Positions 1,382-62,115 of a DNA stretch of 64,000 bases are shown piece by piece. A model generated the notes under the pieces. The model worked only from the letters and a program-made list of their open reading frames with translations. It did no database searches and had not been told where the DNA came from. Both the position numbers and the translations under genes were made by a program. Location of the stretch: positions 1,619 through 65,618 of the IMG/VR virus record IMGVR_UViG_3300048670_001253, one strand, 5' to 3'. Each line of letters opens with the position of its first letter. Positions within the stretch are counted from its first letter, which is position 1. Origin of the DNA: a virus. Lineage: Duplodnaviria > Caudoviricetes.

Positions 1382-2245
1382 ATGAGCGAAAAATTATTGA
1401 CTATTGGTATGGCCACTTATGATGATTATGACGGAGTGTATTTCTCTTTGCAATCACTTCGAATGTATCATGAGATATGCGCCACCGATCAGGTTGAATT
1501 CTTGGTAATAGATAATAACCCCAAAGGCAAACACGCAGAAACTGTCAAGTCTTTTGTAAACGGTTGGGCCAGAGGAAGATATATTCCTTACGAGGAGAAG
1601 AAAAGCACTGCTGTAAGGAATGAAATATTCAAACAGGCCCAAGGCAAGTATACCATATCAATGGACTGCCATGTCTTGTTTCAAAAGGGCGCAATAGAAA
1701 GTCTCCTCAAATACTACGAACAAAATCCTGATTGTAAGAATATAGTTCAGGGGCCTCTTCTTTATGATGATCTTAGAAATGAATCAACAAGTTTTTCTCC
1801 AGTTTGGAATCATTCCATGTATGGAACTTGGCATACAGATCATGAAAATTTGAAGAAAGGCGAGCCTTTTGAGATCCTAATGCATGGCTTAGGTGTTTTC
1901 TCTTGCGAAACCAAAAATTGGGTTGGATTCAACCAGCACTTCAAAGGATTCGGTGGTGAAGAAGGTTACATACATGAGAAATTCAGAAGAAATGGAGGCA
2001 AAGCAATTTGCATTCCTCAATTAAAATGGGTTCACCGTTTTGGCCGACCCGAAGGTGTCAAGTATCCATTAGTTTTAGAGGATAGAGTTTGGAATTATTT
2101 TGTAGGTTGGCTTGAACTAACATGCAACCCAGATCATGAAATGATTAAGGGAGCATATGATCATTTCAAAGACAAGATACCCGCAGGAAGTATAGATAAA
2201 ATTCTTGAAAATGCCAAGAAAACAGTCTTAGAATCACCAGGCTGA
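1382..2245 (+). CDS. GT2-family glycosyltransferase
   Basis: N-terminal LTIGMATYDD, VIDNN, SMDCH (DxH variant of DxD), GFGGEE acceptor motif. Confidence 0.8.
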   Translation: MSEKLLTIGMATYDDYDGVYFSLQSLRMYHEICATDQVEFLVIDNNPKGKHAETVKSFVNGWARGRYIPYEEKKSTAVRNEIFKQAQGKYTISMDCHVLFQKGAIESLLKYYEQNPDCKNIVQGPLLYDDLRNESTSFSPVWNHSMYGTWHTDHENLKKGEPFEILMHGLGVFSCETKNWVGFNQHFKGFGGEEGYIHEKFRRNGGKAICIPQLKWVHRFGRPEGVKYPLVLEDRVWNYFVGWLELTCNPDHEMIKGAYDHFKDKIPAGSIDKILENAKKTVLESPG

Positions 2246-3421
2246 TGTTGAATACATCTTTCTCCACCTGTTGACTTTATTATCAGAAAGTCCGCAAGGT
2301 GAAGAAACTGCTGGATAATTATTTCTCTCGGCCTGATACATTCCAACTAGATGGGCGATGTCATCAACTTCTCTGGGCTCCCAGCCAGCAGATAGCAGAG
2401 CAAATTTTACCTTTTCCATGGGATTATCTTTTACAACCCAAGCAGAGGTAAGAAATCTGTCGTTGTATGCTTTTTCTGGCACATCTAACGATAAATTATC
2501 CATTGGATAAATTGTATTTATTAGTCCTGTGCTGTTATACATATCTAAATACTTTTTATCATTCACTTCTGGGTTTTCAAGACCAAGAATATATTCTCTT
2601 TTATAATTCTTGTTTACATCGTTTATCTTGGATAAAGATTCAATATGGTCCTCGGGTAATTCTCCATTTCCATATCGAGCTTGCATTCTTAAGTATCTGT
2701 GTGCTGTTACTGGATCTTCATCTACTCTTTTTGAGAACTTTCCAATAGAAACTATTTGTCCGTTCTTTAAATGATGGGCTCCACCGTACACGTCAAGCAA
2801 CTCTGTATTTTCACCTTCACTATTTTTCAAGGGGATGTACATTGCATTTATTGTAAAGTCTCTAGAGGCTGCGTCGTCTTCCAAACTTGATGTTGCAGAG
2901 AAACCATCGACATTTAGATTTCTGTTTTTTATTGATTTTGATAATGGGGATAGTTCATAGCCTTCTCCGTTGACAACAACTGTGAATTCAATTGGTTTAT
3001 TTTTACTGTCTCGTCTGCTTGGAAAAAAACTTTTATTTCCTTTAGGGTTTTGACTTTCTTCAAACCCATTTCCCTTTAATATTAATTTAATTTCACTCGA
3101 TGTTGCATCTGTAACGAGGTCGTAATTTCTTGGAGTCTTTCCTTTCAAGTGATCACGAACAGCTCCGCCAGTCAGGTAGAGAAGCTTCTTCTTGAGCTTT
3201 GGTTCAACTTCTCCATTTGTTTTATCCATTGTTGTATAGCCGACACCTACCTGAGGACTATTTTCAAATGCCTTGACAAGTATTCTTAAATTGGAATGGC
3301 TATCTTTATCGATTACAAATGGTTGAAAATCTTCCGCTCCTTGAGCTTTGGTTAGTTTGACTTTTGAAACTACCGGAATGTTATTCTCTTTGTATAATAT
3401 GTAATCTTGAAATTTTCCCAT
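2234..3421 (-). CDS. CCA-adding/poly(A) polymerase family nucleotidyltransferase with degenerate motifs
   Basis: GGAVRD..L...PRNYDL (NxD instead of DxD), SRDFTINAM, EDPVT (instead of EDxxR). Confidence 0.8.
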   Translation of the reverse strand: MGKFQDYILYKENNIPVVSKVKLTKAQGAEDFQPFVIDKDSHSNLRILVKAFENSPQVGVGYTTMDKTNGEVEPKLKKKLLYLTGGAVRDHLKGKTPRNYDLVTDATSSEIKLILKGNGFEESQNPKGNKSFFPSRRDSKNKPIEFTVVVNGEGYELSPLSKSIKNRNLNVDGFSATSSLEDDAASRDFTINAMYIPLKNSEGENTELLDVYGGAHHLKNGQIVSIGKFSKRVDEDPVTAHRYLRMQARYGNGELPEDHIESLSKINDVNKNYKREYILGLENPEVNDKKYLDMYNSTGLINTIYPMDNLSLDVPEKAYNDRFLTSAWVVKDNPMEKVKFALLSAGWEPREVDDIAHLVGMYQAERNNYPAVSSPCGLSDNKVNRWRKMYSTSAW

Positions 3422-3468
3422 TTTTTACCTTTTGTTGATATTGTTATATATTGTTTAATCTCATTTTT

Positions 3469-3744
3469 TCACACTGAAGGACTTTGTATTCCCAATTTAT
3501 ATAATAAGTAGGAAGCAACAACTACCCAAAATATTTTAACTACAAAGTCAATTAGTTGATCCCAATTCTGTTGCGATCTTGATGTTCTTAGATTTATTCC
3601 TTCCATCTTGATTTCAAATTCTTGAATTTTTTTTGATAAAGAATCAATATCAGACGACATTTCTTTAATTTTATCTTCAAGATGCTCGATTTTATGTTCG
3701 GCCTTCCCTAGATTTCCAGATTGATTTCTTCTTTTTTCTACCAT
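3469..3744 (-). CDS. small coiled-coil protein with C-terminal TM helix (holin/XhlA-like topology)
   Basis: heptad-rich N-terminus, hydrophobic FVVKIFWVVVASYLLY. Confidence 0.45.
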   Translation of the reverse strand: MVEKRRNQSGNLGKAEHKIEHLEDKIKEMSSDIDSLSKKIQEFEIKMEGINLRTSRSQQNWDQLIDFVVKIFWVVVASYLLYKLGIQSPSV

Positions 3745-3793
3745 TTTTTGTTATATGTGTAAACTTTATAGACTTTCACTAATATATATAGTT

Positions 3794-4267
3794 ATGGAAA
3801 ATCAAGATAAAATCATAATAAGCGAAATAGATGACGCCAAAGAGCTAATTCCACAGATGAATGTGGACCTACCATCTATTCAGGGTCAAAATGATCTTTC
3901 TCATATAGTTTCTGATGAAGAACTATCTAGTGTTTATAGTGAAATACTGGACAATATTAGAGAAGATAGAAAACAAATAGACGAATTTATAGGAAATTTT
4001 GCAGATCTGGTAATAAATGAGGGAGACAGCACCAGCGCCAGCAAAGAAGCTCTTGTGAGCCTGGTCAAGATAAAAAGCGATGTAGCGGATAAAATGGCAA
4101 AAATGGCCGATTTGATGACAAGAATAAAATTAAAAGATAAAGACACCTTCCCTAAATACTTAGCAGCAAATCAAAACAATACAATCAATATAAATTCCGG
4201 AAACAATAAGAGACAATTATTAGAAGCAATAAACAAAGCAAAGAAAGAAGCAAAAGATGAAAATTAA
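3794..4267 (+). CDS. hypothetical helical protein
   Basis: ORF track 3755-4267; start moved to ATG 3794, just after TATATATAGTT. Confidence 0.7.
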   Translation: MENQDKIIISEIDDAKELIPQMNVDLPSIQGQNDLSHIVSDEELSSVYSEILDNIREDRKQIDEFIGNFADLVINEGDSTSASKEALVSLVKIKSDVADKMAKMADLMTRIKLKDKDTFPKYLAANQNNTININSGNNKRQLLEAINKAKKEAKDEN

Positions 4268-15621: not shown

Positions 15622-15972
15622 TTATCTATAAATCTTGTTTAGTTTTTCCCGCCAGTTTTTAGCATCTTCTAATACATTTGGATTGAATCTAACCCAGTTT
15701 TTAAGATGCCCAAAAAATAGGTGACAATTGAATGATGGAGTTTCGCACAAAACTACAAAATTATCTTTCTCCAGCTCTTTTGTCGGATCTACATGAACCG
15801 GGACTATATGATGTACAACTAGGTTCTTCTTGGACCCACAAACAGCACATTCGCTATTAGATCCTAGGTAATTTTTTCTTACTGTTCTCCATCTTCCTGA
15901 TCTTGGTATAGATAAAGCTTGGATCTCTTCTTTTGATAATTTGAAAAATATACTTTTGATAAAGTTAAACAT
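15622..15972 (-). CDS. HNH endonuclease
   Basis: CAVCG...VHHIVP...N...LCE....NCH. Confidence 0.85.
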   Translation of the reverse strand: MFNFIKSIFFKLSKEEIQALSIPRSGRWRTVRKNYLGSNSECAVCGSKKNLVVHHIVPVHVDPTKELEKDNFVVLCETPSFNCHLFFGHLKNWVRFNPNVLEDAKNWREKLNKIYR

Positions 15973-15992: not shown

Positions 15993-16805
15993 ATGAGTTT
16001 TAAACTTTGGCTTATCGAATCTAGTCTCAGGGACTTACTAAAAGATGTTCCTCAAAATCCTGATCACCACGCTGAGGGCGATGTTTTTAAACATACCAAG
16101 ATGGTTAGAAACTCACTCGATATAGCAAAAAGATTGCTTAAAAAAGAGCAAGGAATGTTTCCTTTTTCAAAAATAAACTTTGATCTATCTGATAGAGAAG
16201 AAAAAATACTCAAAATATCTGCTTGGCTTCATGATATAGGAAAGGCAAGCGCTACAACCGTTGACGGCGTGCACTGGAAGGATGCCCTCAGCCATTCGGG
16301 TAAGATATCAGCTCATCAACACGATCAACCACACCATTATGAGCCAATGATAGATAAACTTGGCTCAATGTGGGGCACTATAATCTCGGCGCTAACCCCA
16401 GATGAAATACAAGATATATATTTTTGTATTGATTATCATATGAGTCTTAGTAATGGATCTTTTTCCAAGAAAGTATCTTCTATTATTTTTGATCAAGATG
16501 GAAATTATAAGAATGAAAGAAAGATCAAGCTTCTTCTTTATATTATAACAATGGATTGGGCCGGTAGAATATCAGGAAACAAAGGTGGAGAAAATGGCGC
16601 CCTTGATGCAATCCAAGGATTTAAAAATTCAGCACATAAATTATTAGAAAAAAATAAAGCTATCGACAGCAGAAAAAAGGTTTCTATAGATGATCCAAAA
16701 GAATTTATTTTATCTTTAAAAGGTCGTCCAATAGAAATTATTAAAAAGGCTTTTCAGAACAAATTTAACAGAGAAATCTCAGAAGAAGAGATTTCTTCTA
16801 TTTGA
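15993..16805 (+). CDS. stand-alone HD-domain phosphohydrolase of the type fused to multifunctional CCA enzymes
   Basis: PQNPDHHAEGDVFKHT, AWLHDIGK, YHM, MDWAGR. Confidence 0.85.
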   Translation: MSFKLWLIESSLRDLLKDVPQNPDHHAEGDVFKHTKMVRNSLDIAKRLLKKEQGMFPFSKINFDLSDREEKILKISAWLHDIGKASATTVDGVHWKDALSHSGKISAHQHDQPHHYEPMIDKLGSMWGTIISALTPDEIQDIYFCIDYHMSLSNGSFSKKVSSIIFDQDGNYKNERKIKLLLYIITMDWAGRISGNKGGENGALDAIQGFKNSAHKLLEKNKAIDSRKKVSIDDPKEFILSLKGRPIEIIKKAFQNKFNREISEEEISSI

Positions 16806-16838: not shown

Positions 16839-17270
16839 ATGTTACAAGAAATTAAATACTCTTGGCAGGACTTTGACTCAGACATGAGGATATTGTCCGG
16901 TAAGGTTTCCGAATCTGGTAAAATTCCTGATTTTATAATTGGAATCAAAAGAGGAGGATTATTGCCTTCTGTTAAATTCAGTCATATACTCTCTGTTCCT
17001 TTAAGAGTTGCGACAATTTACAAAGATAATATAAACATAGAATTAGAGGATGTATCTAAATCTTCTAACATTCTTTTAGTTGATGAAATTTGCGATAGTG
17101 GCGACACCCTTCAAAAAATGAGGTCGTATCTACTACACGAAGGTTTTGCAAATATACGATCGGCATGTTTGTATTATAATATAAGACAATCTTTCTTAGT
17201 GGATTATAGTGCCAGAAAAATAGATCGAGAGAAAGAGAATGGATGGATAGTTTTCCCTTGGGAAAACTAA
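16839..17270 (+). CDS. type I phosphoribosyltransferase (Gpt/Hpt-like)
   Basis: IGIKRGGL, LLVDEICDSGDTL PRPP-binding loop, WIVFPWE C-terminus. Confidence 0.9.
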   Translation: MLQEIKYSWQDFDSDMRILSGKVSESGKIPDFIIGIKRGGLLPSVKFSHILSVPLRVATIYKDNINIELEDVSKSSNILLVDEICDSGDTLQKMRSYLLHEGFANIRSACLYYNIRQSFLVDYSARKIDREKENGWIVFPWEN

Positions 17271-21232: not shown

Positions 21233-24200
21233 ATGATAATTAAAAAAATAAATCAAATAATAAGCTTAAGAGAAGATTATACTCTATCTGACTTGCCTCA
21301 GATTATCAAAGATAAGATTCAAATAATATATGGCGAATCTGCAAGTGGTGATATTCTTTTATCTTGGACCCCAATCGGGATACCAGGATTTGACAAGATA
21401 AAAGCAGATAGATCATATATTATAAGGAATCTTCCAGATAATTTTGCCGATTATAGCCTTCCTATTAATGCAAATTCACCTAATCAAGATAATGCTGTAA
21501 ATAAAGTTATTCAATTTTTTACCTATAAAGCTGAATCTAATTTTAATTTGTCAAATTTATCTCCAAGTATTAAAAATAAAATTTCAATAATTTATTCCGA
21601 ATCATTTAGTGGAGATAATTTAGTCACATGGACCACCACAGGACTACCAGGGTTCACACAATTTGTTTGCGGAAAAACTTATCTTATAACTAGTGTTGAA
21701 GATAGTTTTTCGCCCTATGATTTGGGGGCTCCAACTCCACAAGTCTCTTACCCGGTATCAGCATACTTTACCGGCGGTTATTTTAGATTAAAAAATCTGG
21801 GCACAAACGATGTAACAGAAAATTTGTCAGTATTTTATGATCGTGGTTTGAATATTGGTGACTATGACCTAATTCAGGTTATTGCATCAGGTAGCTCGTT
21901 TGATTTTAATTATGTTAATAGTATTAATTTAGCTAAGCAATATTACACAGGGTATACAGACATTGATTATGCCTCGTTGGAGTTAGTTCTTATTGATTCA
22001 AATAACAAAGTTGTAGGATGGGCCACAACTAGTACCGACATCACAGAAGAGCCGACCCATGGACTCTCAGGATCCTCTTTAAATATAAGGCTTTTTGATT
22101 TCCCAGAAATAATTGTTAAGGAAAATTGGAATCTTGGAACATTAGTGAATGGGACTGGTAGATCGGCCAATTTTTTTAATAATATTTCTCCTTATAAGTT
22201 ACTATTTCCGCCAATCACTCCTACTCCCACTCCCACAACAACTCCCACCTTAACTCCTACTCCCACAACTACTCCCACAACTACTCCCACTTTAACTCAA
22301 ACACTTACTCCCACCATAACTAGCACCAAAACCCCAACTTCAACAAACACTAGTACACCAACATCGACTCCAACTCTAACACCAACATTAACTAACACCT
22401 TAACATTAACCAATACCCAAACACTAACACGGACTCAAACTCCCACAAACACAAATACTCCCACAACCACCAATACGTCCACACCTACACAGACTCAAAC
22501 TCTTACAAGCACAAATACTCCCACAACTACCAATACATCTACACCCACACCCACACCCACTCTTACCTCAACACCAACAGCTACACCAACAGCTACACCA
22601 ACATCAACTCCTACTCTAACTAATACTCTAACTTTAACTCAAACTCAAACTCAAACTTTAACCAATACACTAACTTTAACTAATACACGAACACCAACCC
22701 AGACTCAAACTCTTACAAGCACAAATACTCCTACAACTACTAATACATCTACGCCTACATCTACGCCTACTATTACTCCAACACTAACGGCCACTCCAAC
22801 ACTAACTAAGACATCAACGCCAACCAACACCCAAACTCCTACCCAACCTCCTTGCGTAGGCTTAATTGTAAATGGAGATTTTAGTTTACCCTCCTCTCTG
22901 AGTGGCCAGTGTTTGGGAGGTATTGGATATGATAATAGACAACAGTATGTGGCGGCACCTCCTTGGTATTTGCATCCCAACGGCCAGATGTATTCTTTTT
23001 ATTATTGCAATAATTCATTATTAAATAATAGATTTGTTGGCTTGGGGCCTACTGCAAATAATGCTTATTTATCACAAACAATATCAACAGTAGCCGGCGT
23101 TACATATGTTTGCTCTTTTGATATGGGTTGCCAACCTGGTTATGATTATTTAAACTTGGTCAAGAGATACTTAGAAGTGTTAGTAGCATCTGTGGCTAGC
23201 TCGGGGGTTGTCTCAAAGAACACCTTTAATATAAGCAATGTAGTAACAGGTAATAGTTATGAAAGCCTGGGATGGGCGACTAAGTCATTTGAGTTTACTG
23301 CTACTTCTTCTTCAACAATAATAGTGTTTAGGACTCCCAACAATTCATTAACTGCTTTGCCAGCTGGGGGGCAAGGAGCAGAACAGTGTGCGGCCACAGT
23401 GGACAATATAGAGGTTTCGTGTGCAATTGTACCAACTAATACACCAACAATAACACCAACTTTAACCAATACACCAACACTAACTAATACATTAACTTTA
23501 ACTAATACACAAACTACCACGCCGACTAATACACTCACATTAACCAATACATCAACTTTAACCAATACCCCCACCTTATCAAATACTCCAACATTAACTA
23601 AAACTCAAACTCCAACATTAACTAATACTATAACTTTAACTAATACTATAACTTTAACTAATACCCCCACCTCATCAAATACTCCAACATTAACTAAAAC
23701 TCAAACTCCAACATTAACTAATACACTAACTTTAACCAATACTCCTACCTTATCAAACACCCCCACCTTATCAAATACTCCTACATCAACTAATACCCCT
23801 ACACTAACTAACACTGTAACGTTAACTAATACAAAAACTCCTACTTTAACACCAACATTAACCAATACGCCCACATCAACTAATACTCCCACACTAACAA
23901 GCACACAGACACTAACAAGCACTCCAACTTTAACTGGGACCCAAACATTAACACCTACAATTACACTAACCAATACAAATACTCAAACACCAATAAAAAC
24001 TCAGACTCCAACATTAACTTCAACTCCTACATTAACTAATACACCAACTTTTACCAATACTCCAACATCTACCAATACACAAACTTTAACTCATACTCCT
24101 ACTTTAACAAATACTGCGACTTTGGTGTTGACCCAAACCGCTACCCCAACAGGAACCCCTACATTAACTCCAACTCTTACACCAACCCGAACCAGTACTC

Positions 24201-24784
24201 CCACTTTAACAAAAACTCCCACACAGACCAATACTCAAACCTCAACGAAAACATTAACTCCAACACTAACAGCAACATCTACTAATACGCCCACAGCTAG
24301 TCCAACACTAACACCTACATTAACAGCCACACTAACTCCCACGCTAACTGCCACTCCCACTAAGACGCTAACAGCTACGCCCACTAATACACCAACAGCT
24401 AGCCCAACGCTAACACGCACTCTAACAGCCACGCTAACTCCCACACTAACTGCCACTCCCACTAAGACACCAACAGCTAGCCCAACACTAACGCCTACAC
24501 TAACATCAACACCAACAGCTAGCCCAACACTAACACCTACATTGACAGCCACACAAACACCCACACTGACGTCTACTCCTACCAAGACATCAACATCAAC
24601 ACCTACCAAGACACAAACAGTAACGCCTACTAAGACACTAACAGCTACTCTAACACCCACCCCAACAGCTACACCAATATTGAGAAACTATAACAGATCA
24701 ACTAATAGGAATGTAAATTATGTAAACTGGGGGTTACTAAGAGGTGTAATTCCATCTAACGTTAATAATTGGGGATCGCCATGA
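21233..24784 (+). CDS. very large Thr-Pro-rich (mucin-like) protein with an internal carbohydrate-binding-like (DUF642/CBM-like) domain
   Basis: long TPTxT/TNTPT/TLT repeats flank LIVNGDFS...[14 protein letters not shown]...[16 protein letters not shown]...DNIEV. Confidence 0.75.
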
Positions 24785-27700
24785 AAAACACAAGAACAAA
24801 AACAAGATATATCGATAGAATTTTATCCAAACTACACAGAAAAGATTCTGGGTCCATCCCTGTAAATCTTAAGGAATTTACAATAATATTAAAGAACAAA
24901 GAAGATAAACCAAGTTTTATCAAAGATATGGATGAACCTCAGTCAACATCCTTTTTAATCAGCACCATTCCAAATAGATCCTGCAAGCCTCTAGATTTAA
25001 CAGATAACGACAGAAGAGTTTTAACATATCATCTCAACGATGAAGAAGCCGAGCTCATTAAAAGAGATCCAAGAGTGGAGGTTGTTGAAAAATATATCGA
25101 AAAAACAATAAAACCGTTTGGGTTTAAAGATGGAACAATATTGATAAAACCGGTTGATTGTTTAGATGATAAAAATATAGATGCCCAAAATAATCAAATT
25201 AGTATTCAATCATATGATGAATATAGATCAATAATCGGCCTGCCAGATGGCTCTGATGTTGATGTTGTTATAGTAGATGGTTTTATGAGTCCGAATAATC
25301 CCGAACTTGCTAATAATCGGGATGGTACTGGGGGAACCAGAGTAAACCAAATAAATTGGTTTCAAGCTATAAACTACAATAATCCAAATTATCCATCATA
25401 TCCATATTTAACTGGTATAGACGAAAACAATGATCATGGATCCCATGTTTCTGGAACTGTTGCTGGAAATACTCAAGGTTGGGCTAAAAAAGCAAATATA
25501 CACAACATATATCCGTATGCTTCATATATGCCTAGCGGAAATAAAGATTTATTTTTATATGCTATTAAAATTTGGCATGAAAATAAGGGTGTAAATACTT
25601 TGTATGGAAATAAAAATCCCACAATAATAAATTGTAGTTGGGGGTCCACTTACGATGCGGGGGCCGACACCAGAGATGTTTTATCAATCAACTATAGAGG
25701 ATCCACAATAAACCCCTCCAGAAATTATTCTGGGGCAAAGTTAACTGCTGTTTTAAATACTGCTCGTCGGATTAAGCAAATAAATGTTATGAATCAAGGT
25801 GTCAATTATACTAATGAACCGGATATATCATTTTATGGAGGTGGACAAGAAACTGCAACTGCCGTATTAGCAAATGGTTCCATTAAAAAAATAATTATAA
25901 CAGATGGTGGATCAAATTATGATTATAATAATCCCCCAACAGTAACTTTTAGCGCTCCTCCCGCAGGTGGAGTAAGGGCGACAGGAGTAATTAAATCCAC
26001 AAAATATCGTAATTTTTCAGAAACTGGCCCCCTGATTTACATTGATGCTATTACTAATATTGGCGGTGATTCTGGTACTGGAGGAATTTATTTTATCGAA
26101 TTAACAGAAGCCGGATCCGGCTACGCTAGTCCCCCAACAGTTACTTTTTCGAGTCCCGGTGCTGGTGGAAGGGTGGCTCAGGCACATGTTGAAATAGGTT
26201 CTAATTTTATAAAGAAAATAAACTTAACAAATGGTGGAACAGGAAACAGCAACGACGAATTCATTCCTTATATTATTTTGAGTGGTGGAAATCCTTCACA
26301 ATCTGCCTTTACAACAATATCATCAATTGACTATCAAGGAGCGAGTAATTATACAAATGATGTGGGAGCCATACTGAATGGAGTCTATATGGTATATGAA
26401 TCTGTGGAGCAAGAATCTTTTGGCTCTCCTGTTTCAATCACCCTAGAAGGCGGCAACTACGCATCAGCACCAATAGTTTCTTTTTTTAAAGGTAATTTTT
26501 GGGAGGAAGATGGCACCATTACTGGAAATAAACCCGAAGCAAGAGCGGTAATGGGAACTGGGGTCAATGCGGGTAAAATAATGTCAATAAATATCCTTAA
26601 CCCAGGAAATGGATATACATCTGCCCCAAAAGTGGTAGTAACAAATGGTGGAGGATTCACTTTAAGCGAACTAAAGTCTTACGGATTAGTAGCTTTTCCA
26701 GATTTGACGGCAGAGTTTTCCGGCAGGCATTTAATAGTAGGAATACCCGCTAGGACCTCATTTGTTGATGCAGATGTGCAGGATTTAATAGCTTCAGGCG
26801 TTGTTGTTGTGGCTTCTGCTGGAAATGATTTTTATGGCATAGATATTCCATCTGGGCAAGATTATAATAATACTATTACAATGTTATACCCAGCTTTTAT
26901 TAGAGCAGAACCATCAATAATCATGGCCAATGAAGGCATTGCGACCCTGCCCTACAGAAGAGGTTCTTCCCCCGGAGCTTGCCCAGGGGTTATATGTGTG
27001 GGAGCTACTGAGGCGTCTTCAACTGAGTACAAAACAGATTTCAGCAACACAGGGCCAAGGGTAGACGTATATGCTCCTGGGGAGCATATACAATCAGTAA
27101 TTTACAATAGTGGCTCACCAGATAGTATACCAGACCCCAGAAACAGCGATTTTTGTTTAGAGAAATATTCTGGAACGAGCATGTCAAGTCCTCAAGTCTG
27201 TGGAATGATTGCCTGTTATGCTCAAAATAATAGAAACATAAACCAAGCTAGCGCTGCTGCTTTTATTTCAGATAATGCCAGGCCGGCAGTTCAAGAAGGA
27301 ACGGATTATAGATCTTTACAAGGCGGGACAAACAAATATGCTTATTTTCCATTACTTGCCACTCCCACTCCTACTCTAACGCCCACGCCAACCCCGACAA
27401 TAACAAAAACACCTACTCCAACTTTAACCAATACACCCACAAAAACCAATACTCTGACTTTGACCGTTACTCCTACATTGACCAACACCAATACCCTAAC
27501 ACAAAAACCAGTAACTACTCAAACTCTACAAATAACTCAAACAAATACTCTAACTTTAACAAATACAAAGACACCAACTTTAACGCCAACAAATACTCCC
27601 ACACCAACAAATACTCAAACATTAACTAATACCCCAACAAAAACCAATACACCAACACTAACAAATACTCAAACATTAACTAATACTCCAGCACCAACTA

Positions 27701-28062
27701 ATACTCAAACATTAACCAATACCCCAACACCAACTAAGACGCCAGCATTTACACCAACCAACACTGCGACTAGGACGCCTAATATTATTTTCACAGATCC
27801 CTTTAATTTAAGATTGAGATATGGAGCTCCTAATTCTCTTATTTGGAATCAAAGAAACTTAGATCGTATTGTAGCTGTTGAAGCTGCGAGAAATTATAAG
27901 GTAAAATCTTGGTCACAGGTCGCCCCAGGAACACAAAATAGATCTAACTATGCAAGCTGCGGGGACAATAACCACTGTTATTGGAATGGAACCGGCTGGG
28001 TTGTGACCGGTGCGTGTTCTGGCAATTGGATAGGAAGTATGACTTTAACTAAAATTATCTAA
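24769..28062 (+). CDS. S8 (subtilisin-like) serine protease with inserted Gly-rich beta repeats and a Thr-Pro-rich tail
   Basis: catalytic motifs [36 protein letters not shown]. Confidence 0.9.
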
Positions 28063-32963: not shown

Positions 32964-34199
32964 TTATATACTGTTTTTGATATAATTATTATACTCATCA
33001 TCATTCATTCTATCACTTATTTCTTTGCCTTTTAGGTGCATGTAATCTTCTGATTTTGTGACCTGTTGGTAGTTTAAGAAATATTTTATTTCATCATCTA
33101 ATCCGCTTATCTTGCCAAACTCCACAAAAGATTCTCTGAGTTTATCGCTTAGATTATCTCTCATTCTAATCATTCTTATTATATTAGATTTGTTTAAGTT
33201 ATAGGCAACTCTAAGAATAAAAGCAACTGTATCGGATATTTCATTGGAATACTTTAGTTCATTTAATTTTGATCTTAATTTATTTGGATCATTATTTCTG
33301 AAAATAAAACTCATCGTTGCGATTGGATCACGAGAATTTATCTCGGAACTTAAATCAATCCCCAGCCCAGGGAAAATTGTTGATAATAAACCCAGAGCTT
33401 TATAATTCATCATGTAGGTTCTAACATTTTTACACTTACTCAAACCCGATAAAAATTCATTTGCAATTCTTTCTCCGCTTACTCCATTTAAATCTTTAAA
33501 TTTCCCCACAGCACTTATTGTTTTTTGATCTAAATGATTTGTAATAATATCATCATTGAATCTTGAGAAGAATCTAACAAGTCTTAATACTCTAAGTTTA
33601 TCTTCTCTGAACCTTTCCATAGGATCCCCGACACTTCGGACAGAAAGATTCCTTATATCCTTGAAACCCTCTCCTTCTCCCTTGTCATCTAAATTATAAT
33701 CACGGATTTGCTTGTCATCTAAATCGTAAAAGAGTGCATTTATGTTAAGATCTCTGCGTTTTGCATCCAAACTTGGCGTGCTGTAAGAAACGCTATCTGG
33801 TCTTCTTCCATCTCCTTTTTCTGGATCGTAGAATTCAGTTCTAAATGTTGCTATCTCAAATTCTTTTCCATTTATAATTGCACTTATTACACCAAAACTC
33901 TCTCCTTTTGGAAAAACTTTTATTCCATTATCAATAGCTTCTTTGGAACTTAGTATTTTGATCACCTGATCGGGTGCTTGGTCAGTTGCAAGATCAACAT
34001 CCTTTGGATTATATGGAATATGTTTCTGATGGAATATATGATATAGATAATCTCTTATTGCGCCACCAACTGCGTACAATTTTGCCCCAAATTTCTTGAA
34101 TAGTTGACTTAAAATATCAACTTCCGAGGGCATTGGGATTGATGCACTCATTGCATGATACTGTTCTTCCTCTTTTAGTAGCCAATTTTTGAATTTCAT
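32964..34199 (-). CDS. cca: tRNA nucleotidyltransferase (class II CCA-adding enzyme family), catalytically intact
   Basis: VGGAIRD, PKDVDLAT (DxD), EIATFRTE...GRRP loop, RRDLNINAL, EDKLRVLR; start moved to MKFKNWLLKEE (alternative 34217). Confidence 0.85.
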   Translation of the reverse strand: MKFKNWLLKEEEQYHAMSASIPMPSEVDILSQLFKKFGAKLYAVGGAIRDYLYHIFHQKHIPYNPKDVDLATDQAPDQVIKILSSKEAIDNGIKVFPKGESFGVISAIINGKEFEIATFRTEFYDPEKGDGRRPDSVSYSTPSLDAKRRDLNINALFYDLDDKQIRDYNLDDKGEGEGFKDIRNLSVRSVGDPMERFREDKLRVLRLVRFFSRFNDDIITNHLDQKTISAVGKFKDLNGVSGERIANEFLSGLSKCKNVRTYMMNYKALGLLSTIFPGLGIDLSSEINSRDPIATMSFIFRNNDPNKLRSKLNELKYSNEISDTVAFILRVAYNLNKSNIIRMIRMRDNLSDKLRESFVEFGKISGLDDEIKYFLNYQQVTKSEDYMHLKGKEISDRMNDDEYNNYIKNSI

Positions 34200-38719: not shown

Positions 38720-40012
38720 ATGAGTTTTAAAGTTTGGCTTGAAAGAAGCGAAGTATCTTCACCAGCGTTATTTGAAAAAGTTAAACAGCTAAAAGGTCTG
38801 TACTCTGGTGTTCATTTTTCAAAAACAGACTTCTTAAGTTTAAATCCAAGTCCAAGCCATTTTGATCCAATAGGGGTTTATGTTTTTCCAAAAGACTATG
38901 TTTTGGGGAATGGACTGTTTCGAAACAATATGTTTGCAAGCTATCCATATGTATTCCTAATCGAACCCTCAGAGAGCGCCAGAGTTTTAAATCTCGATAT
39001 GGATAAAAACACTGCTGGTAAACTTTTAAGTGATATGGGAATAGATAAAAGTCTTTTAGATAGCGATGAAGTTTATCATAATTCAGGCAGTAATTCTCCT
39101 GGTCATCTTTTCTGGGGAGTTTTAGAGAAGATAAGAAATGAAAAAAGATTACCCAGAAACTCTTCTTGGAACAGCTTCTTTAAAAAGACTGGTTATAATG
39201 TTTTATATGATCCTGGACTGGGTATAATTCATAGTAACGAACCTAATCAAGTTGTTTATTTGGATCCTAAGTCATATAGAGTTGTAGATTTAATAACCAA
39301 TGATAGTGGCTATAAAATACTATATTCTATAGCTAAAAACTTCCCTGAATACCAACTATTTAAGAAAAAATCAAGAGGATGGTACGGAGAAGGCAAAACA
39401 GAGATAACACTTAAAGATAAAGATAAATATTCAACAATAGAATTATCCAACTCCAAAGAATATCCAAACACCGTGTGGTGTGTGGTGTATGGGTATACAA
39501 ATGAATTCAAAAAAGAGTTTTCAATAAAGAGTAATGACGACTTGGCAAAAGCAATTCAAGAAATTAAAGATTTTCTTAAAACAGAAAAAAAGGAAAGAAG
39601 TCTTTCGTTATCAAGCGACTATAGTAAAATGGAAAATATAGCCAATACATATGTCCTTAAATATGATAAAGAATATCCAGCAATAATAGAAAAGAACTAT
39701 AAAAATAATACAAAGTTTATTATTAATTATATGCCGAGTAAAAAAGAAATAGCAATGCGAGTTAAAAAAGGATATTCACCCGGTTCATATTATAATTTCT
39801 CTTACCACGTAGACTTAATATCTTCAGAGTCCACCAGTCCAGAAGAAGATGTGAAATCTCTAATCGAGAAGATTAAAAATAAAATAAAAGATGATATAAA
39901 AGTTTTTAGATTATCTTCAAATCCTAGTGCGCAATACCAAGCAGAGGATGCTTTAAAGTTTGTTGAATTTCTTGAGAATAGAGTCTTTATTAAAAGAAAA
40001 CAATCAATATGA
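38720..40012 (+). CDS. hypothetical protein, possible ADP-ribosyltransferase-like N-terminal fold
   Basis: N-terminus MSFKVWLERSE; GVHFS, GVYVFP, NEPNQVVYL pattern; not searched. Confidence 0.5.
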   Translation: MSFKVWLERSEVSSPALFEKVKQLKGLYSGVHFSKTDFLSLNPSPSHFDPIGVYVFPKDYVLGNGLFRNNMFASYPYVFLIEPSESARVLNLDMDKNTAGKLLSDMGIDKSLLDSDEVYHNSGSNSPGHLFWGVLEKIRNEKRLPRNSSWNSFFKKTGYNVLYDPGLGIIHSNEPNQVVYLDPKSYRVVDLITNDSGYKILYSIAKNFPEYQLFKKKSRGWYGEGKTEITLKDKDKYSTIELSNSKEYPNTVWCVVYGYTNEFKKEFSIKSNDDLAKAIQEIKDFLKTEKKERSLSLSSDYSKMENIANTYVLKYDKEYPAIIEKNYKNNTKFIINYMPSKKEIAMRVKKGYSPGSYYNFSYHVDLISSESTSPEEDVKSLIEKIKNKIKDDIKVFRLSSNPSAQYQAEDALKFVEFLENRVFIKRKQSI

Positions 40013-41833: not shown

Positions 41834-42214
41834 TTATTTATAACGGCGCACTTCTAATCCCGCAGATTCTAGGAGAGATTTACTGAATATATCTTTTTGT
41901 AAATTAAAACCAACTTCGCCCATTAAAGAAGGATCATAATGCATTTCATACTTATGTTTTCCAACTGAAAGTATGTCACCAGGATTAATTGAATCCTCTT
42001 CTATTTGTTCATTATTGATTTTAGTTCCATTGCTACTATTGAGATCTTTTACCATCCATTTTCCATCAACTATAGATAGCTTGCAATGCACCCCAGAAAC
42101 ATTCGGGAATTGCAACACTATATCAGAACTTTCTCTTCTGCCAATAATGAGATTGGACCTCAGCAGAGGAATTGTATCACCGCCTCCAATTGGCCTAAGT
42201 TCACCATACTTCAT
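41834..42214 (-). CDS. FHA-domain protein
   Basis: IIGRRESSDIVL....VSGVHC, DLNSSNGTKIN. Confidence 0.9.
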   Translation of the reverse strand: MKYGELRPIGGGDTIPLLRSNLIIGRRESSDIVLQFPNVSGVHCKLSIVDGKWMVKDLNSSNGTKINNEQIEEDSINPGDILSVGKHKYEMHYDPSLMGEVGFNLQKDIFSKSLLESAGLEVRRYK

Positions 42215-42605
42215 TTTTAATATTTCCTATTGTTATATGATAGCAATTTCTTTTTAATCCGCCAAAGAAAGTGTCATCACGATATTCGTCTAAACCTAGT
42301 TCTTTTCTTATTTCGCCTATTTCATTACAAATTGAATTTAACCAAAAATAAATATCATCATTTTGAATAATTGGACTATAATCAAAAGTGAGAATTCTTC
42401 CCGAGTGTTTTCCCCAAGATTCATAAGATTCTACTTTTTCTTTTCCTTTTCTCACTATTGTTATATGCGACTTCTTCTTTTGAGGCTTGACGTAAAAACT
42501 TTTAGGAATCATGCTTCTATAATAGTTGCTAATACTTTGATCTATGTTTAGTACGCAATAATCCTCAAAGTACTCTACAATACCTGTGGAGGAGAAAGGA
42601 TACAT
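42201..42605 (-). CDS. 2H phosphoesterase
   Basis: two HxT motifs: SHITIV and YHITIG. Confidence 0.75.
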   Translation of the reverse strand: MYPFSSTGIVEYFEDYCVLNIDQSISNYYRSMIPKSFYVKPQKKKSHITIVRKGKEKVESYESWGKHSGRILTFDYSPIIQNDDIYFWLNSICNEIGEIRKELGLDEYRDDTFFGGLKRNCYHITIGNIKNEVW

Positions 42606-45462: not shown

Positions 45463-45699
45463 TTAACTAGTTGGCAAGTCCTCCAAAACTTCTATTATTT
45501 CTATTAATTGATTCTTGCTATATTCTTTTTCAAATGGAATAAAAGACCAAGAACCATCTTTGAATACAAAGTATCCATAATAGCTCTTATAATGAAAATC
45601 ACTAATCTTTTCTAGGTTGAGCATAAAACTATTTAGTTCCGAAGCATGGGTACGATCCATGAATAATTGGACCAAAGCCAATTGTGATACCAATTTCAC
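45463..45699 (-). CDS. hypothetical protein
   Basis: 78-aa ORF downstream of tRNA-Thr. Confidence 0.45.
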   Translation of the reverse strand: MKLVSQLALVQLFMDRTHASELNSFMLNLEKISDFHYKSYYGYFVFKDGSWSFIPFEKEYSKNQLIEIIEVLEDLPTS

Positions 45700-45720
45700 T
45701 ACTTCGGACCGTTCAATCTA

Positions 45721-45792
45721 AGCCCACAAAAGGAATTGAACCTTTATTTGATGATTACAAATCAACTGTAATAGCCTTTATACTATGCGGGC
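45721..45792 (-). tRNA. tRNA-Thr(UGU), CCA not encoded
   Basis: manual fold: GCCCGCA/TGTGGGC acceptor, loop TT-TGT-AA, T-arm AAAGG-TTCAATT-CCTTT, discriminator T followed by TAG. Confidence 0.88.
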
Positions 45793-57994: not shown

Positions 57995-58173
57995 AACTAT
58001 CAACCGTACCAGAGACGATCAGGATTAAACTTCTTCCTTAACTGTTTCCATAACAATTAATTCTTCACTATAAGGAAGATTATCCAGAAAGTTATGTAAT
58101 GTTTCTGGAGTGTTATATGGGCCGTATTTAATTTGCCCTTGTTCATAATAAATGTGAACGTAAAACATTACTA

Positions 58174-58610: not shown

Positions 58611-58669
58611 CTTTTTACCCTTTGGTGTTGGTGTTACGAAACGAAACCGTACCAGAGACTATCCCGATT

Positions 58670-59023: not shown

Positions 59024-59170
59024 CTTTTTCTCCAAGAGAAGGTCGGGACAAACCACAACCGTACCAGAGACTAAATCATTTCTCTCTCAAAAATATTTTC
59101 CCAGTTTATAATAGTATATACCTATAGATTAACAATGACGTTAATCATGTTTTTTTAAAAGGAGTTTATT

Positions 59171-59623
59171 ATGAGTGCAACAACAACAGAAGGCACAGGT
59201 TTAGGAATGGCCCCTAACCAAGTATCTTTAACAGTAGCTGGCCCACATATCGTAGCCGCCGGAACAGTTAGAACGGGACAGCCAGGAGCAGACGGACAAT
59301 CTAATGACTGGTGGATTACAGTCGATCTAGATCAAGTATTACCTTTAAGCCCAAGTAATTATGCCGTAATGATTACACAAAGTGACGAATCAGGTCATTT
59401 AGGTGGCCCAGATGGTCAGAGATCAAACAACCCACCACATATCGAGAAATTCGTTAAGGTTAACGGGGATCGTTATAACTACTGGGGTATTGATGATGAG
59501 TTCGAAAGCTATGCTAATTGGAACAACAATGGTTTAGCTGGTTTCGTTGTCCACTGCGGACACCCTGACCCAAAGACTATTGATTATGTTGTCGTAAGAA
59601 CCGGTTTTTTAAGAACTAACTGA
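59171..59623 (+). CDS. hypothetical protein, late-type transcription unit embedded in the early array
   Basis: AAGGAG RBS, upstream TATAAT/TATATA, own terminator. Confidence 0.8.
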   Translation: MSATTTEGTGLGMAPNQVSLTVAGPHIVAAGTVRTGQPGADGQSNDWWITVDLDQVLPLSPSNYAVMITQSDESGHLGGPDGQRSNNPPHIEKFVKVNGDRYNYWGIDDEFESYANWNNNGLAGFVVHCGHPDPKTIDYVVVRTGFLRTN

Positions 59624-59649
59624 ATTTAACTAAAAACACTTTTGGTGTT

Positions 59650-59681
59650 AACCCCAAGACTAACCCTCTTGGGGTTTTTTA
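59650..59681 (+). terminator. intrinsic terminator
   Basis: AACCCCAAGA/TCTTGGGGTT stem plus T-tract. Confidence 0.85.
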
Positions 59682-59821
59682 TTATACCTTCCTGATTATC
59701 CTATCGTATTCTTCTATCAACTCCAAAGCAGAGATATTATATTCTTCTGCGTAGTCCCTTGCTTTATCCTTGTTTGGACTCAGCATACTCATTGGAGAAT
59801 TTAAAGTTTTAAGAATAAACC

Positions 59822-60052
59822 TTATACTTTGTTCTTTTGAGAGATCTGCCAATTTTTATGCTCCACAACTACGTCAATGTTATTACGAAGAAGATTATCA
59901 GGCGCAGTATCACAATACAAACTAATCATCTCAAGAATATCATCAAGACTATTCCTAAGAAGATTATCATTGGTTAAACTCTTTGAATAAGAAAGTTTAG
60001 CAGCAATCTTACAAAAGAGTAGTGCATCTTCCTTGTCCATAGAGCCTACCAT
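59822..60052 (-). CDS. hypothetical protein
   Basis: downstream of the HTH gene in the same unit. Confidence 0.55.
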   Translation of the reverse strand: MVGSMDKEDALLFCKIAAKLSYSKSLTNDNLLRNSLDDILEMISLYCDTAPDNLLRNNIDVVVEHKNWQISQKNKV

Positions 60053-60267
60053 TGTGGCACCTTTGCTCCCTTAGCACGAAGTTTATGGCACCGCTGCCTT
60101 ACTGCTTGAGGACTAATCCCCAATTCATTTGCAACGCTAATACTGTTTCCACCGTTCTTAACGGCTTCCACAATAGCTTTAAGAAAAACATCAAGACTGA
60201 TTCTTTTGTTCTTCTTAGGAAGATCGTCGTTATCGTCGTCATCAAAACTGAGTTCAATATCAAACAT
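60046..60267 (-). CDS. small HTH protein, divergent paralog with acidic N-terminus
   Basis: ISLDVFLKAIV...GGNSISVANELGISPQAVRQRCHKLRAKG; GGAG RBS; motif 60297. Confidence 0.75.
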   Translation of the reverse strand: MFDIELSFDDDDNDDLPKKNKRISLDVFLKAIVEAVKNGGNSISVANELGISPQAVRQRCHKLRAKGAKVPQW

Positions 60268-60313
60268 CTATTCTTTCTCCGTGGTGACAACCCAACACCG
60301 TACCAGAGACGAT

Positions 60314-60514
60314 TCAAAGACTGGAAGTTTCCTCGTCCCTTTGCTCTACCGGACTTTGCCACTCATCTTTTAACTGCCCATAGTATAACTTTTCAATCCA
60401 TACTTCTGGGCCATGTTTATTTCTGGCAAATTTAACAGCATCCCATTCACTATATGCTGATACATAGTCAGCTATACGATTATTCTTCCAAACCCGCCAA
60501 GTATGTTTTTCCAT
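60314..60514 (-). CDS. hypothetical protein
   Basis: TATAAT just upstream. Confidence 0.55.
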   Translation of the reverse strand: MEKHTWRVWKNNRIADYVSAYSEWDAVKFARNKHGPEVWIEKLYYGQLKDEWQSPVEQRDEETSSL

Positions 60515-60553
60515 TCCCCTATTATAATTTAATCTGGGGTTATTGTCAAGGAT

Positions 60554-60748
60554 TTAATGTCCACTAACAATATCTTTTATAGCGGCGCTACACTCTTGAA
60601 TGTTAAATCCATTATCCCATGCTTCGAATACTGTACTCTCAATAACTTCGTTATCCCAATATATTTCGTATTCATAATATTCAAGATCATAATACTCTTT
60701 TACTCGAGCATAATAATCAGTGAATTCTTTTTTACTTCGCATCGTCAT
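60554..60748 (-). CDS. hypothetical protein
   Basis: coupled ORF. Confidence 0.5.
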   Translation of the reverse strand: MTMRSKKEFTDYYARVKEYYDLEYYEYEIYWDNEVIESTVFEAWDNGFNIQECSAAIKDIVSGH

Positions 60749-60945
60749 ATGCGTTTTCGTGTGTAGAAAGCGTGCTCTTTGGCTGAGTCCCTACGTTCTA
60801 GCATACTATCTGCCATAGAGTAAGCAATCACACTAATCTCATCAATCTCAAAGGCTTGAGATTGTGCAGTCATAATAGCCTGCATGGCTAGTCCGGCAAA
60901 ATAATCTCTGAGACTAATGTGACTATTATCTTTATCTTGTAACAT
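60745..60945 (-). CDS. conserved phage hypothetical protein (LRDYFA motif)
   Basis: ISLRDYFAGLAMQA...AYSMADSML. Confidence 0.75.
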   Translation of the reverse strand: MLQDKDNSHISLRDYFAGLAMQAIMTAQSQAFEIDEISVIAYSMADSMLERRDSAKEHAFYTRKRI

Positions 60946-61320
60946 TTAGACTCCACTCTTAAGAGCCCGATTAGTAGCAATCTTCACACCAAGTTTACGA
61001 TTAAACATTCCACCACTAGGAACATTAAACTTACCCCTCAGATCACGACCATCAGGAGTAGTAATCTCCACAAGTGTAAAGCCACCTTTGCAACTAAGTT
61101 CCCAAATTCCCAGGCGAACATTATTGTATTGTTCATATTCACGCTTGCTCATGATCTCATGAACAATCTCTGGGAAGTTAAGAGTGTTATTATAAACCCG
61201 TCCGTGATAAACACGAACCTTATAACCAGTCTTACGAAGAACTTCTACGTTTGGCATTTCAATTTTATTCATAGTGGTCATTGGTGTGTTCCTATATTTA
61301 CCAAGGGCGGGCTGGATCAC
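60946..61320 (-). CDS. hypothetical protein (start probably about 61280)
   Basis: GYKVRVYH, KGGFT.VEI, FNRKLGVKIA. Confidence 0.65.
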   Translation of the reverse strand: MIQPALGKYRNTPMTTMNKIEMPNVEVLRKTGYKVRVYHGRVYNNTLNFPEIVHEIMSKREYEQYNNVRLGIWELSCKGGFTLVEITTPDGRDLRGKFNVPSGGMFNRKLGVKIATNRALKSGV

Positions 61321-61483
61321 GACGATGTTTCTTTTTCTTATTCATCACAGAGTTTACAATATTGGTTTTAACCTTATTGAACTCTTTGATTGCTTCTGGA
61401 AGTTTCTCTTCAAACTTTGAAATCACAAAGTCTTTTTTATTATTAAGCCAACTCTTATTAAACCAGTCAGGCAACGGATTCAT
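61298..61483 (-). CDS. hypothetical protein
   Basis: TAATG coupling to the upstream ORF. Confidence 0.5.
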   Translation of the reverse strand: MNPLPDWFNKSWLNNKKDFVISKFEEKLPEAIKEFNKVKTNIVNSVMNKKKKHRRDPARPW

Positions 61484-61806
61484 TATAGATCCCTCTTTCT
61501 ATTTACATCAGTAACAGTGTGATTATACTCTATTCCAGATTCTCTGCAATAACGGCTGACATAATAATAACTGGTCAAACGATCAAGAAAACCATTATCA
61601 ACAAGCCACTTACTGGCATTGTATTCCCATTGATCCCCATACCCATAAGTAAAAGGAATCTTATGAACCATACGGTCGTTCACCCAGATTTCACAAGTAT
61701 GGTAGGTATTACCATAGCTACGTTGAAACCAGCGACGAGCAAGAAGATAGATCGTCTTAACTTCAACAAAACTGGTCAGGAGTTTTTCTTTTGTGATTGT
61801 TTCCAT
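61483..61806 (-). CDS. hypothetical leaderless early protein
   Basis: ATG 8 nt after TACGGT (61815); RWFQRSYGNTYH, YGYGDQW. Confidence 0.75.
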   Translation of the reverse strand: METITKEKLLTSFVEVKTIYLLARRWFQRSYGNTYHTCEIWVNDRMVHKIPFTYGYGDQWEYNASKWLVDNGFLDRLTSYYYVSRYCRESGIEYNHTVTDVNRKRDL

Positions 61807-61830
61807 GACTGTTCACCGTACCAAAGGGAA

Positions 61831-62115
61831 TGCGGCCTCCGGGAATCGAACCCGGAACCTAGAGGTTAACGTACTACTTCAGTTTTCACTGCCCTTGCGG
61901 TTTGTAGTCTGGACTTTACCTTCACCATTGTTTTTCAACTTTAGGTGCTGCCCGTCAAGTCTCTACACCTTCCTAAAATTAAAAAATAATCTTAGGCTTG
62001 GCTCGGTATTAGCAGTTAAGCCTTCACCGAATTTGAGCAGTTCTACTCCAAAAGTTTCCTTTTAGGCACTCTTAATTTCAAAAGCCCCTTGCTCTACCAA
62101 TTGAGCTAAAGCCGC
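61831..62115 (-). tRNA. tRNA-Lys(UUU) split by a group I intron (exon 1 62115-62082, exon 2 61869-61831); CCA not encoded
   Basis: spliced 73-nt cloverleaf GCGGCTT...AGGGG-CT-TTT-AA-CCTCT...CCGGG-TTCGATT-CCCGG-AGGCCGC-A. Confidence 0.92.
61870..62081 (-). ncRNA. ORF-less group I self-splicing intron, 212 nt, between anticodon positions 34 and 35
   Basis: P1 with U34-G wobble (CTT|TT pairs with AAGAG); core elements AAATTCGGTGAA, GCTAATACCGAG, GTAGAGACTTGACG, AAGGTAAAGTCC; terminal omega-G at 61870. Confidence 0.9.

Follow-up and report, generated by a model that had tools for sequence, protein, structure and literature searches.

Scattered genes for a probable tRNA-end maturation and repair pathway in a genome fragment of a very large tailed phage

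The stretch of viral DNA analysed here, hereafter the window, comprises 64,000 nucleotides (bases 1619-65618) of the 65.6-kb IMG/VR virus record IMGVR_UViG_3300048670_001253, assigned to the Caudoviricetes. The record is 14% complete according to CheckV, which corresponds to a whole phage genome of about 0.45 Mb. Distributed over the window are three tRNA genes devoid of an encoded CCA end, two class II tRNA nucleotidyltransferases (NTases), a stand-alone HD phosphohydrolase and a miniature 2H phosphoesterase, which we compared with their counterparts in other phages and which probably contribute to one pathway of tRNA-end maturation and repair. A megablast search of 50,697 deposited phage records revealed no close relative, the only match being a single 54-nt tRNA segment. 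Four large relatives were found in IMG/VR, namely G001 (323 kb), G002 (251 kb), G003 (459 kb, 91% complete) and G004 (381 kb), among which G001 is the closest, with proteins 83-90% identical to those of the window.

The complete nucleotidyltransferase, NTase1 (411 aa, positions 32964-34199, minus strand, leader MKFKNWLLKE), is of the class II, CCA-adding type. Its ATG start at 34199 is confirmed by orthologues. It displays the PolyA_pol head domain (PF01743, E 3e-22), matches phrog_2244 (tRNA nucleotidyltransferase) over profile positions 3-374 of 392 (E 3e-36) and retrieves CCA-adding enzymes of the PDB (E 9e-22). The motifs GGAIRD, DVDLAT, RRD and EDKLR are intact, and the segments AKRRDLNINAL and REDKLR line up with the same motifs in human TRNT1 and in the orthologues. 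The gene had been annotated as an intact class II enzyme in a preliminary description of the window, made from the DNA letters, and the class II motifs for catalysis and templating are indeed all kept. NTase1 is nevertheless a divergent member of the family, far under the NCBIfam equivalog cut-offs (best model PRK13299, 121 bits vs 290 needed), so that a CCA-, CC- or A-adding specificity is not assignable from its sequence.

Its paralogue NTase2 (395 aa, positions 2234-3421, minus strand, leader MGKFQDYIL) belongs to the same fold family (PF01743, E 4e-19) and is catalytically degenerate: DxD is changed to NYD, RRD to SRD and EDxxR to EDPVT, and TFR is lost. This degeneracy, which the preliminary description had recognised in the window gene, extends to the whole clade, where the four motifs are likewise substituted in the orthologues (L083-L092, 45-83% identity), with varying exact residues; the sister clade (L093-L100, 31-37% identity) keeps all four intact. 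The substitution of the motifs across orthologues argues for a conserved pseudo-enzyme and not a decaying gene. Judged from these motifs, NTase2 is probably not an active polymerase; it probably retains tRNA binding.

The stand-alone HD protein (270 aa, positions 15993-16805, plus strand, leader MSFKLWLIES) was hardly detectable by standard domain searches, with no Pfam match at E 0.01, the HD model included, and only a weak HDIG match in NCBIfam. PDB sequence and profile searches with the HD and 2H proteins gave a spurious match to BRCT and matches to Cas3 and HD-GYP proteins limited to the HDIGK motif, all of which were set aside. Thirty-eight metagenomic homologues were collected, and an alignment of 21 sequences revealed twelve invariant residues (H25, H26, E28, G29, H34, H80, D81, G83, K84, H110, H149 and D188), in which H34, H80-D81, H110, H149 and D188 form the H...HD...H...H...D metal-binding set. 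The AlphaFold (AF2) model of the protein (pLDDT 91) was aligned with VIA-align, which also served for the 2H protein, against 48,161 PDB representatives. Its best match is 3wfo_A, over 173 residues within chain residues 242-448 (Z 12.8, root-mean-square deviation 3.5 Å), followed at Z 8.8 by the second-best match and then by a long run of HD enzymes; nearly all of the best 50 matches listed (Z at least 6.2) are HD-type enzymes. Foldseek returned weak rows only for the HD and 2H models (E 0.05 or worse). In its HD ranking, 3wfo stands side by side with 3wfr, presumably the Aquifex CC-adding enzyme, both entries being entitled "tRNA processing enzyme" in the PDB. A preprint treats 3wfr as a CCA-adding enzyme of class II from bacteria and compares its HD domain with the one of bacterial glycyl-tRNA synthetase (10.1101/2021.08.20.456953).

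The 2H protein (134 aa, positions 42201-42605, minus strand) belongs to phrog_12204, a family of "unknown function" (E 1e-17), and is matched by the Pfam 2H-SAK model below threshold (17.5 bits vs a cut-off of 27). An alignment of 17 sequences, including 16 homologues, shows both histidines of its two H-x-T motifs (H47-I-T49 and H123-I-T125) to be invariant and both threonines to be present in at least 90% of the sequences. In the fold comparison of its predicted model (pLDDT 90.5), ranks 1 to 21 are all occupied by 2H enzymes (Z 6.4-3.2, 93-113 aligned residues) before unrelated folds appear at Z 2.6, which bears out its earlier annotation as a 2H phosphoesterase. The highest scores are those of CNPase (6.4), an archaeal 2'-5' ligase (5.8), phage Acb1 (7t27, 5.7), MHV ns2 (5.5) and Deinococcus CPDase (5.4); Usb1, LigT, YjcG, AKAP18 and rotavirus VP3 are among the lower matches. 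RNA-end healing and the breakdown of signalling nucleotides are not separable by the fold alone, but they are by gene context.

Regarding the tRNA genes, the preliminary description had listed tRNA-Thr(UGU) and tRNA-Lys(UUU), both present and both CCA-less as described, and had overlooked a tRNA-Gln(UUG). The genes for tRNA-Thr(UGU) (positions 45721-45792; ARAGORN, and Rfam at 60.1 bits) and tRNA-Gln(UUG) (45637-45708; ARAGORN and Rfam) adjoin each other on the minus strand, and that for tRNA-Lys(UUU) (61831-62115) lies on the same strand. No CCA follows the discriminator base in any of these three tRNAs, nor in any of the 20 that were inspected in the relatives G001 and G003. The tRNA-Lys(UUU) gene is called by ARAGORN only with the intron option, and Rfam locates a group I intron in it (RF00028, 61894-62091, 53.4 bits for a gathering score of 50). 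Splice sites were set by group I rules, with a U before the 5' splice site and a G as the last intron base, giving exons at 62115-62082 and 61869-61831. Excision of the 212-nt intron (62081-61870) yields, according to ARAGORN on the spliced sequence, a canonical 73-nt cloverleaf tRNA-Lys with the anticodon loop CUUUUAA; the predicted position of the intron is between anticodon positions 34 and 35. The corresponding G001 gene (L123, G001:170397-170494) is intron-less and equals the predicted splice product with one exon base different. Since the intron is present in the window and lacking in this near-identical gene, it was apparently gained or lost recently, as would be expected of a mobile intron. 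Two other G001 tRNAs have anticodon-loop insertions according to ARAGORN, tRNA-Asp(GUC) (L127, G001:90867-91031, 51 nt) and tRNA-Gly(UCC) (L130, G001:106384-106507, 27 nt), and interruption of tRNA genes may be frequent among these phages.

Evidence for a functional link between these genes came from relatives, among them those of the HD protein. A profile search over 1.84 billion representative sequences retrieved 1289 relatives, among which ten HD-NTase fusion representatives (690-761 aa) cover the full length of the HD profile (E 1e-84 to 1e-43). Their N-terminal 270-280 residues constitute the HD module and are followed by an NTase with its PolyA_pol domain at about residues 325-465. In all of the ten fusions but P0082 (28%), this NTase half can be aligned almost from end to end with NTase1 at 35-46% identity; its identity with NTase2 is 22-26%. 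Such fusions are encoded as single uninterrupted frames on six viral contigs, including the 91% complete genome of G003. The preliminary description had put forward the idea of a split NTase and HD system; the direct test of it was positive, with the HD module and an NTase1 orthologue united in one polypeptide.

The same HD module is also joined to two other kinds of RNA-end enzymes. In P0076, P0081 and P0094 it is preceded by an AAA_33 P-loop kinase, an order reversed in P0188, whereas in P0096 it is followed by a T4 Rnl1-type ligase (RNA_lig_T4_1, E 6e-15; phrog_562, E 6e-35). The window HD protein matches positions 28-159 of the phrog_6931 profile, also of "unknown function", and the kinases match positions 179-328; phrog_6931 is thus an HD-kinase family. 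At greater distance (E about 1e-10), the HD profile reaches CCA enzymes of the ordinary bacterial type with NTase and HD domains (P0171, P0175, P0187, P0148, P0160 and P0176). The assignment of the free HD domain to the CCA-enzyme type, already made in the preliminary description, consequently holds by three independent tests, those of fold, profile and gene fusion. On this sequence and model evidence, the HD protein is the predicted separated counterpart of the HD module found in CCA-adding and repair enzymes. The HD domain of E. coli Cca, for its part, was reportedly found by Yakunin et al. in 2004 to have 2',3'-cyclic phosphodiesterase and phosphatase activity. The additional segments of these fusions matched no other protein of the window. 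The C-terminal part of P0094 (894 aa), about 450 residues long (447-894), matches no Pfam domain, NTase or window protein and may be a further unrecognised repair module.

The large relatives also carry the enzymes required for the sealing of a broken tRNA. Each of them encodes a separate, unfused kinase (about 165 aa) that matches the phrog_505 polynucleotide kinase; the PDB sequence search with the G001 kinase gave no match. An Rnl1 homologue is encoded by three of the four (G001, G003 and G004), with similarity to T4 Rnl1 (2c5u, E 2e-7) and to phrog_562. The HD, NTase1, 2H and kinase genes are all carried by the four genomes, a count confined to these large relatives. Adjacency provides additional links. 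In G004 (L117), the genes of the NTase1 orthologue and the kinase lie in tandem, the former running into the beginning of the latter. At one 2H locus (L062), a kinase, an Rnl1 ligase and the 2H gene follow each other on one strand as an operon, and at three others (L063, L072 and L073) an NTase1 orthologue (50%, 45% and 29% identity, respectively) either ends at most about 10 nt before the start of the 2H gene or overlaps it by one base. The HD family is therefore linked by fusion with NTase1, with the kinase and with the ligase, and NTase1 is linked by adjacency with the kinase and with the 2H protein, as is the kinase with the ligase and the 2H protein. These fusions and adjacencies argue for a functional link among the scattered genes of the window, which we consider, with reasonable though far from full confidence, to be the parts of one unbundled tRNA-end maturation and repair pathway, encoded by a megaphage whose head is of the T4 type and whose genome measures about 0.45 Mb. 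The central proposal of the preliminary description, that a split NTase and HD system matures and repairs tRNA ends, hence receives comparative support: its split organisation is backed by the HD-NTase fusions, and its repair function by the fusions of HD with kinase or Rnl1 and by the context of the 2H gene. Its wider suggestions, of a counter to defence toxins and of delivery with the virion, stay hypothetical.

In the proposed scheme, NTase1 would put CCA on the phage's own tRNAs and would rebuild trimmed 3' ends. When a tRNA is cut by a metal-independent ribonuclease, the 2H protein would open the 2',3'-cyclic phosphate, and the HD protein would likewise open it and/or take off the remaining phosphate to leave a 3'-OH. 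The kinase would phosphorylate the 5'-OH and Rnl1 would seal the break, both being presumably encoded beyond the fragment, as they are elsewhere in the relatives' genomes. This scheme would follow the logic of T4 Pnkp and Rnl1, with the HD and 2H proteins replacing the HAD phosphatase. tRNA cleavage is a common bacterial defence, to which spare tRNAs and the T4 Pnkp/Rnl1 pair are known phage answers. By analogy alone, a role against host defence is likely for the set described here.

Several observations weigh against this interpretation. The kinase and the ligase necessary for break repair are absent from the window and from its 65.6-kb record, which represents 14% of the genome, and the genes present in the window are 9-17 kb apart, on both strands and separated by unrelated accessory genes. 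An RNA-repair neighbour was found at only 4 of 46 viral 2H loci, where the neighbours are mostly unconserved and where homing-endonuclease-like genes are the commonest recurrent ones. All Z values of the 2H protein are modest, and Acb1-type cyclic-oligonucleotide phosphodiesterases fit its fold about as well as RNA end-healing enzymes do (Z 5.7 vs 5.8-6.4). The three tRNAs of the window decode the commonest Lys, Gln and Thr codons of the phage, AAA accounting for 73% of Lys codons, CAA for 77% of Gln codons and ACA, at 42%, being the commonest Thr codon; plain codon supply would account for them equally well. To our knowledge, moreover, every bacterium has its own CCA enzyme, and NTase1 may merely boost routine maturation.

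The PARIS defence system, which the preliminary description had linked to the tRNA-Lys(UUU) gene, was also considered. Its effector AriB does target tRNA-Lys(UUU), as had been stated, together with tRNA-Thr(UGU), and its cleavage leaves 3'-OH and 5'-phosphate ends (PMC12409363). Such ends need neither the HD nor the 2H protein, which makes PARIS a poor fit. The tRNA-Thr of the window also keeps UAAUCA, the AriB site of E. coli, whereas positions 36-41 of tRNA-Lys after splicing are UAACCU. As regards escape from AriB, both sequences carry little weight.

The foremost alternative is that these genes provide codon supply and routine maturation only, NTase1 and perhaps the HD protein maturing tRNAs, the 2H protein and NTase2 being unrelated to them, with neither repair nor anti-defence involved. 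It agrees with the match between the tRNAs and the preferred codons of this AT-rich phage, with the absence of an encoded CCA from every tRNA examined in the lineage, with the dispersal of the genes amid unrelated accessory genes and with the common occurrence of CCA enzymes in large phages, as stated in passages of a survey of jumbo phages (PMC7824862). It leaves aside, however, the fusions of the HD family with polynucleotide kinases and an Rnl1 ligase, enzymes that routine CCA addition does not require, as well as the 2H gene found in a kinase-ligase operon and the Rnl1 and kinase genes of the relatives. On balance, we regard it as unlikely.

Another possibility would come in addition to the repair pathway and concerns the leader peptide shared by several of its proteins. 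The pattern M-x(0-2)-[FY]-[KQRE]-x-[WFY]-[LIV] is found N-terminally in seven plausible window proteins, for a chance expectation of about 0.06 (a rough estimate from amino-acid frequencies); an eighth match is a 60-aa open reading frame (ORF) in the small-ORF region. NTase1, NTase2 and the HD protein all carry it, as had been noted in the preliminary description, as do the kinases of G001, G002 and G004, and it recurs without its methionine in the linker of the HD-NTase fusions (e.g. GFKAFLE and GFKCFLE). With its aromatic residues three apart followed by an aliphatic residue and Glu, the leader fits the positions of the T4 capsid targeting sequence. Positions 4 and 7 of this T4 sequence act in targeting, and positions 8 and 10 in processing (PMC9026906). 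A Peptidase_S77 protein, the type of the T4 prohead protease gp21, is encoded by G001, G002 and G003 (E about 1e-28). NTase1, NTase2 and the HD protein, and the kinase in relatives, could be packed by means of this leader, processed there by a protease of the gp21 type and injected together with the phage DNA, allowing repair before phage gene expression. The likeness is that of a ten-residue motif seen in sequence alone, the first helix of the HD protein (residues 3-16) is confidently modelled and the leader may be structural, and neither the 2H protein nor the ligases possess it. Packing into the virion appears plausible from the leader, and the complete scenario of an injected repair payload doubtful. 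Even less probable, in our judgement, is its most elaborate form, in which F-[KR]-x-[WF]-[LM]-E would be a mark for prohead packing and gp21-type cleavage, the CCA enzyme, HD protein, kinase and dead NTase would be injected as a tRNA repair crew and the HD-NTase proteins of about 700 aa would be polyproteins cut at the internal leader.

A 430-aa protein encoded at positions 38720-40012 (plus strand) also bears such a leader (MSFKVWLERSE). Its nearest clusters in the ESM Atlas carry ART-PolyVal (score 0.85-0.86), and the ESM Atlas searches gave only leads below 0.9, of which this is one. ART-PolyVal is the ADP-ribosyltransferase of injected polyvalent proteins, and T4 Alt is a capsid-packaged ADP-ribosyltransferase; this protein would fit the packaging idea.

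A final, improbable alternative is that the 2H protein, perhaps together with the HD protein, acts on nucleotides of immune signalling and not on RNA ends, as an Acb1-like anti-CBASS or 2'-5' oligoadenylate-type phosphodiesterase, leaving only NTase1 and the tRNAs linked. This would suit a protein of 134 aa with a fold near those of Acb1, MHV ns2 and a Burkholderia phage phosphodiesterase (Z 5.2), the 42 of 46 2H loci without RNA-repair context and the place of both HD and 2H families among jumbo-phage counter-nucleotide enzymes in passages of PMC7824862, but the recurrent functional neighbours of 2H genes are NTase1 orthologues, the kinase and Rnl1 only, the RNA-end enzymes CNPase and 2'-5' ligase score equally or slightly higher, and the fusion partners of the HD family are all RNA-end enzymes. 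Beyond the shared 2H fold, PDB sequence and profile searches with the 2H protein gave no match to Acb1.

The repair pathway proposed for the window has several known counterparts, from each of which it departs. In T4, Pnkp and Rnl1 constitute the tRNA repair pathway countering the PrrC anticodon nuclease, and the relatives of the window likewise encode an Rnl1 homologue and a phrog_505-type polynucleotide kinase. The 3' healing assigned in T4 to the HAD phosphatase of Pnkp is here attributed to the HD and/or 2H protein, and the four functions (kinase, phosphatase, ligase and NTase) reside in individual genes that are joined in different pairs from phage to phage, the kinase and ligase being absent from the window. 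The bacterial CCA-adding and repair enzymes (E. coli Cca, 3wfo/3wfr type) carry a C-terminal HD domain; they resemble the window set by the complete motifs of NTase1 and by providing the closest fold for the HD protein. They differ from it in that the two modules are 16 kb apart and on opposite strands in the window, whereas in the phage fusions the HD module comes first and is connected to the NTase, in reverse of the bacterial order, by a linker resembling the leader.

A biochemical precedent for end healing by an HD enzyme is Runella HD-Pnk, a fusion of an HD 2',3'-phosphoesterase with a 5'-OH polynucleotide kinase that adjoins a ligase (PMC6097658). P0188 and phrog_6931, with the HD module before the kinase, are similar to it in architecture, unlike the window HD protein, which stands alone, and unlike most phage fusions, which have the kinase first (P0076, P0081 and P0094). 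The fungal and plant Trl1 protein (ligase, kinase and 2H cyclic phosphodiesterase, CPD) unites the same three activities as are predicted for the kinase-Rnl1-2H operon, and its kinase-CPD structure (6u05) is among the weak Foldseek matches of the 2H protein. The phage parts are, by contrast, separate small genes, with a 2H protein of just 134 aa. Trl1-type chemistry leaves a 2'-phosphate, for which Tpt1 is needed.

RNA repair sets are already a known kind of system in big phages. Passages of Iyer et al. 2021 (PMC7824862) interpret such sets of jumbo phages as a counter to host RNases and list among their components tRNAs, Rnl1, Rnl2 and RtcB ligases, polynucleotide kinases, 2H proteins, HAD phosphatases and CCA-adding enzymes, with calcineurin-like and HD-like phosphatases in "a small number" of them. 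Four features are not mentioned in the passages of that article used here and appear new: the present HD family, fused to three kinds of partner and preceding the NTase in reverse of the bacterial order; the miniature 2H family phrog_12204 and its placing in this pathway; the conserved clade of dead NTase2 proteins; and the leader common to several of the modules.

This phage lineage may accordingly perform a T4-type task with other parts, the HD and 2H proteins standing in for the HAD phosphatase and being shuffled as free genes or pairwise fusions. The analysis also proposes a testable function for two families hitherto described as unknown, phrog_6931 and its relatives (HD) and phrog_12204 (miniature 2H), and uncovers a natural series of split and fused proteins in which the coupling between CCA rebuilding and end healing could be studied. 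Should the leader indeed direct packaging, the entry of repair enzymes along with the phage DNA would represent a new, pre-emptive form of counter-defence.

The immediate surroundings of the HD and 2H genes contain other elements. A gap of 20 nt separates the start of the HD gene from an HNH endonuclease gene (15622-15972, minus strand) that points away from it. A pairing of the HD gene with a phosphoribosyltransferase gene (16839-17270) is common to two nearly identical relatives only and was given no weight. The end of the 2H gene is overlapped by 14 nt by an FHA-domain gene (41834-42214, minus strand, E 2e-17). A conserved 2H-FHA pair was rejected, the FHA gene being absent from this place in G001 and G002, where an EamA gene directly follows the 2H gene.

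The window is not uniform in composition. Bases 1-48,000 have a G+C content of about 33% and are covered by open frames over 94% of their length. Their accessory genes include glycosyltransferases, methyltransferases, a subtilase, 2OG-Fe(II) oxygenases, MscL, EamA and SET proteins, as well as CAP, FHA, a UvrD helicase and a phosphoribosyltransferase. Between 48,000 and 64,000, the G+C content rises to 0.39-0.48, no long ORF is found under table 11, and many ORFs of 50-130 aa with an ATG start are present on the minus strand. A reassigned stop codon was tried (TGA as W, TAG as Q, TAA as Q) and gave no long frames in any case; this part is taken to be a block of small genes. A strong strand composition bias was observed between 20,000 and 28,000 (GC skew -0.37 and -0.16, AT skew +0.17), a stretch that spans two very large genes, one encoding a protein of 1183 aa (21233-24784) and the other a protein of 1097 aa with a subtilase domain (24769-28062).

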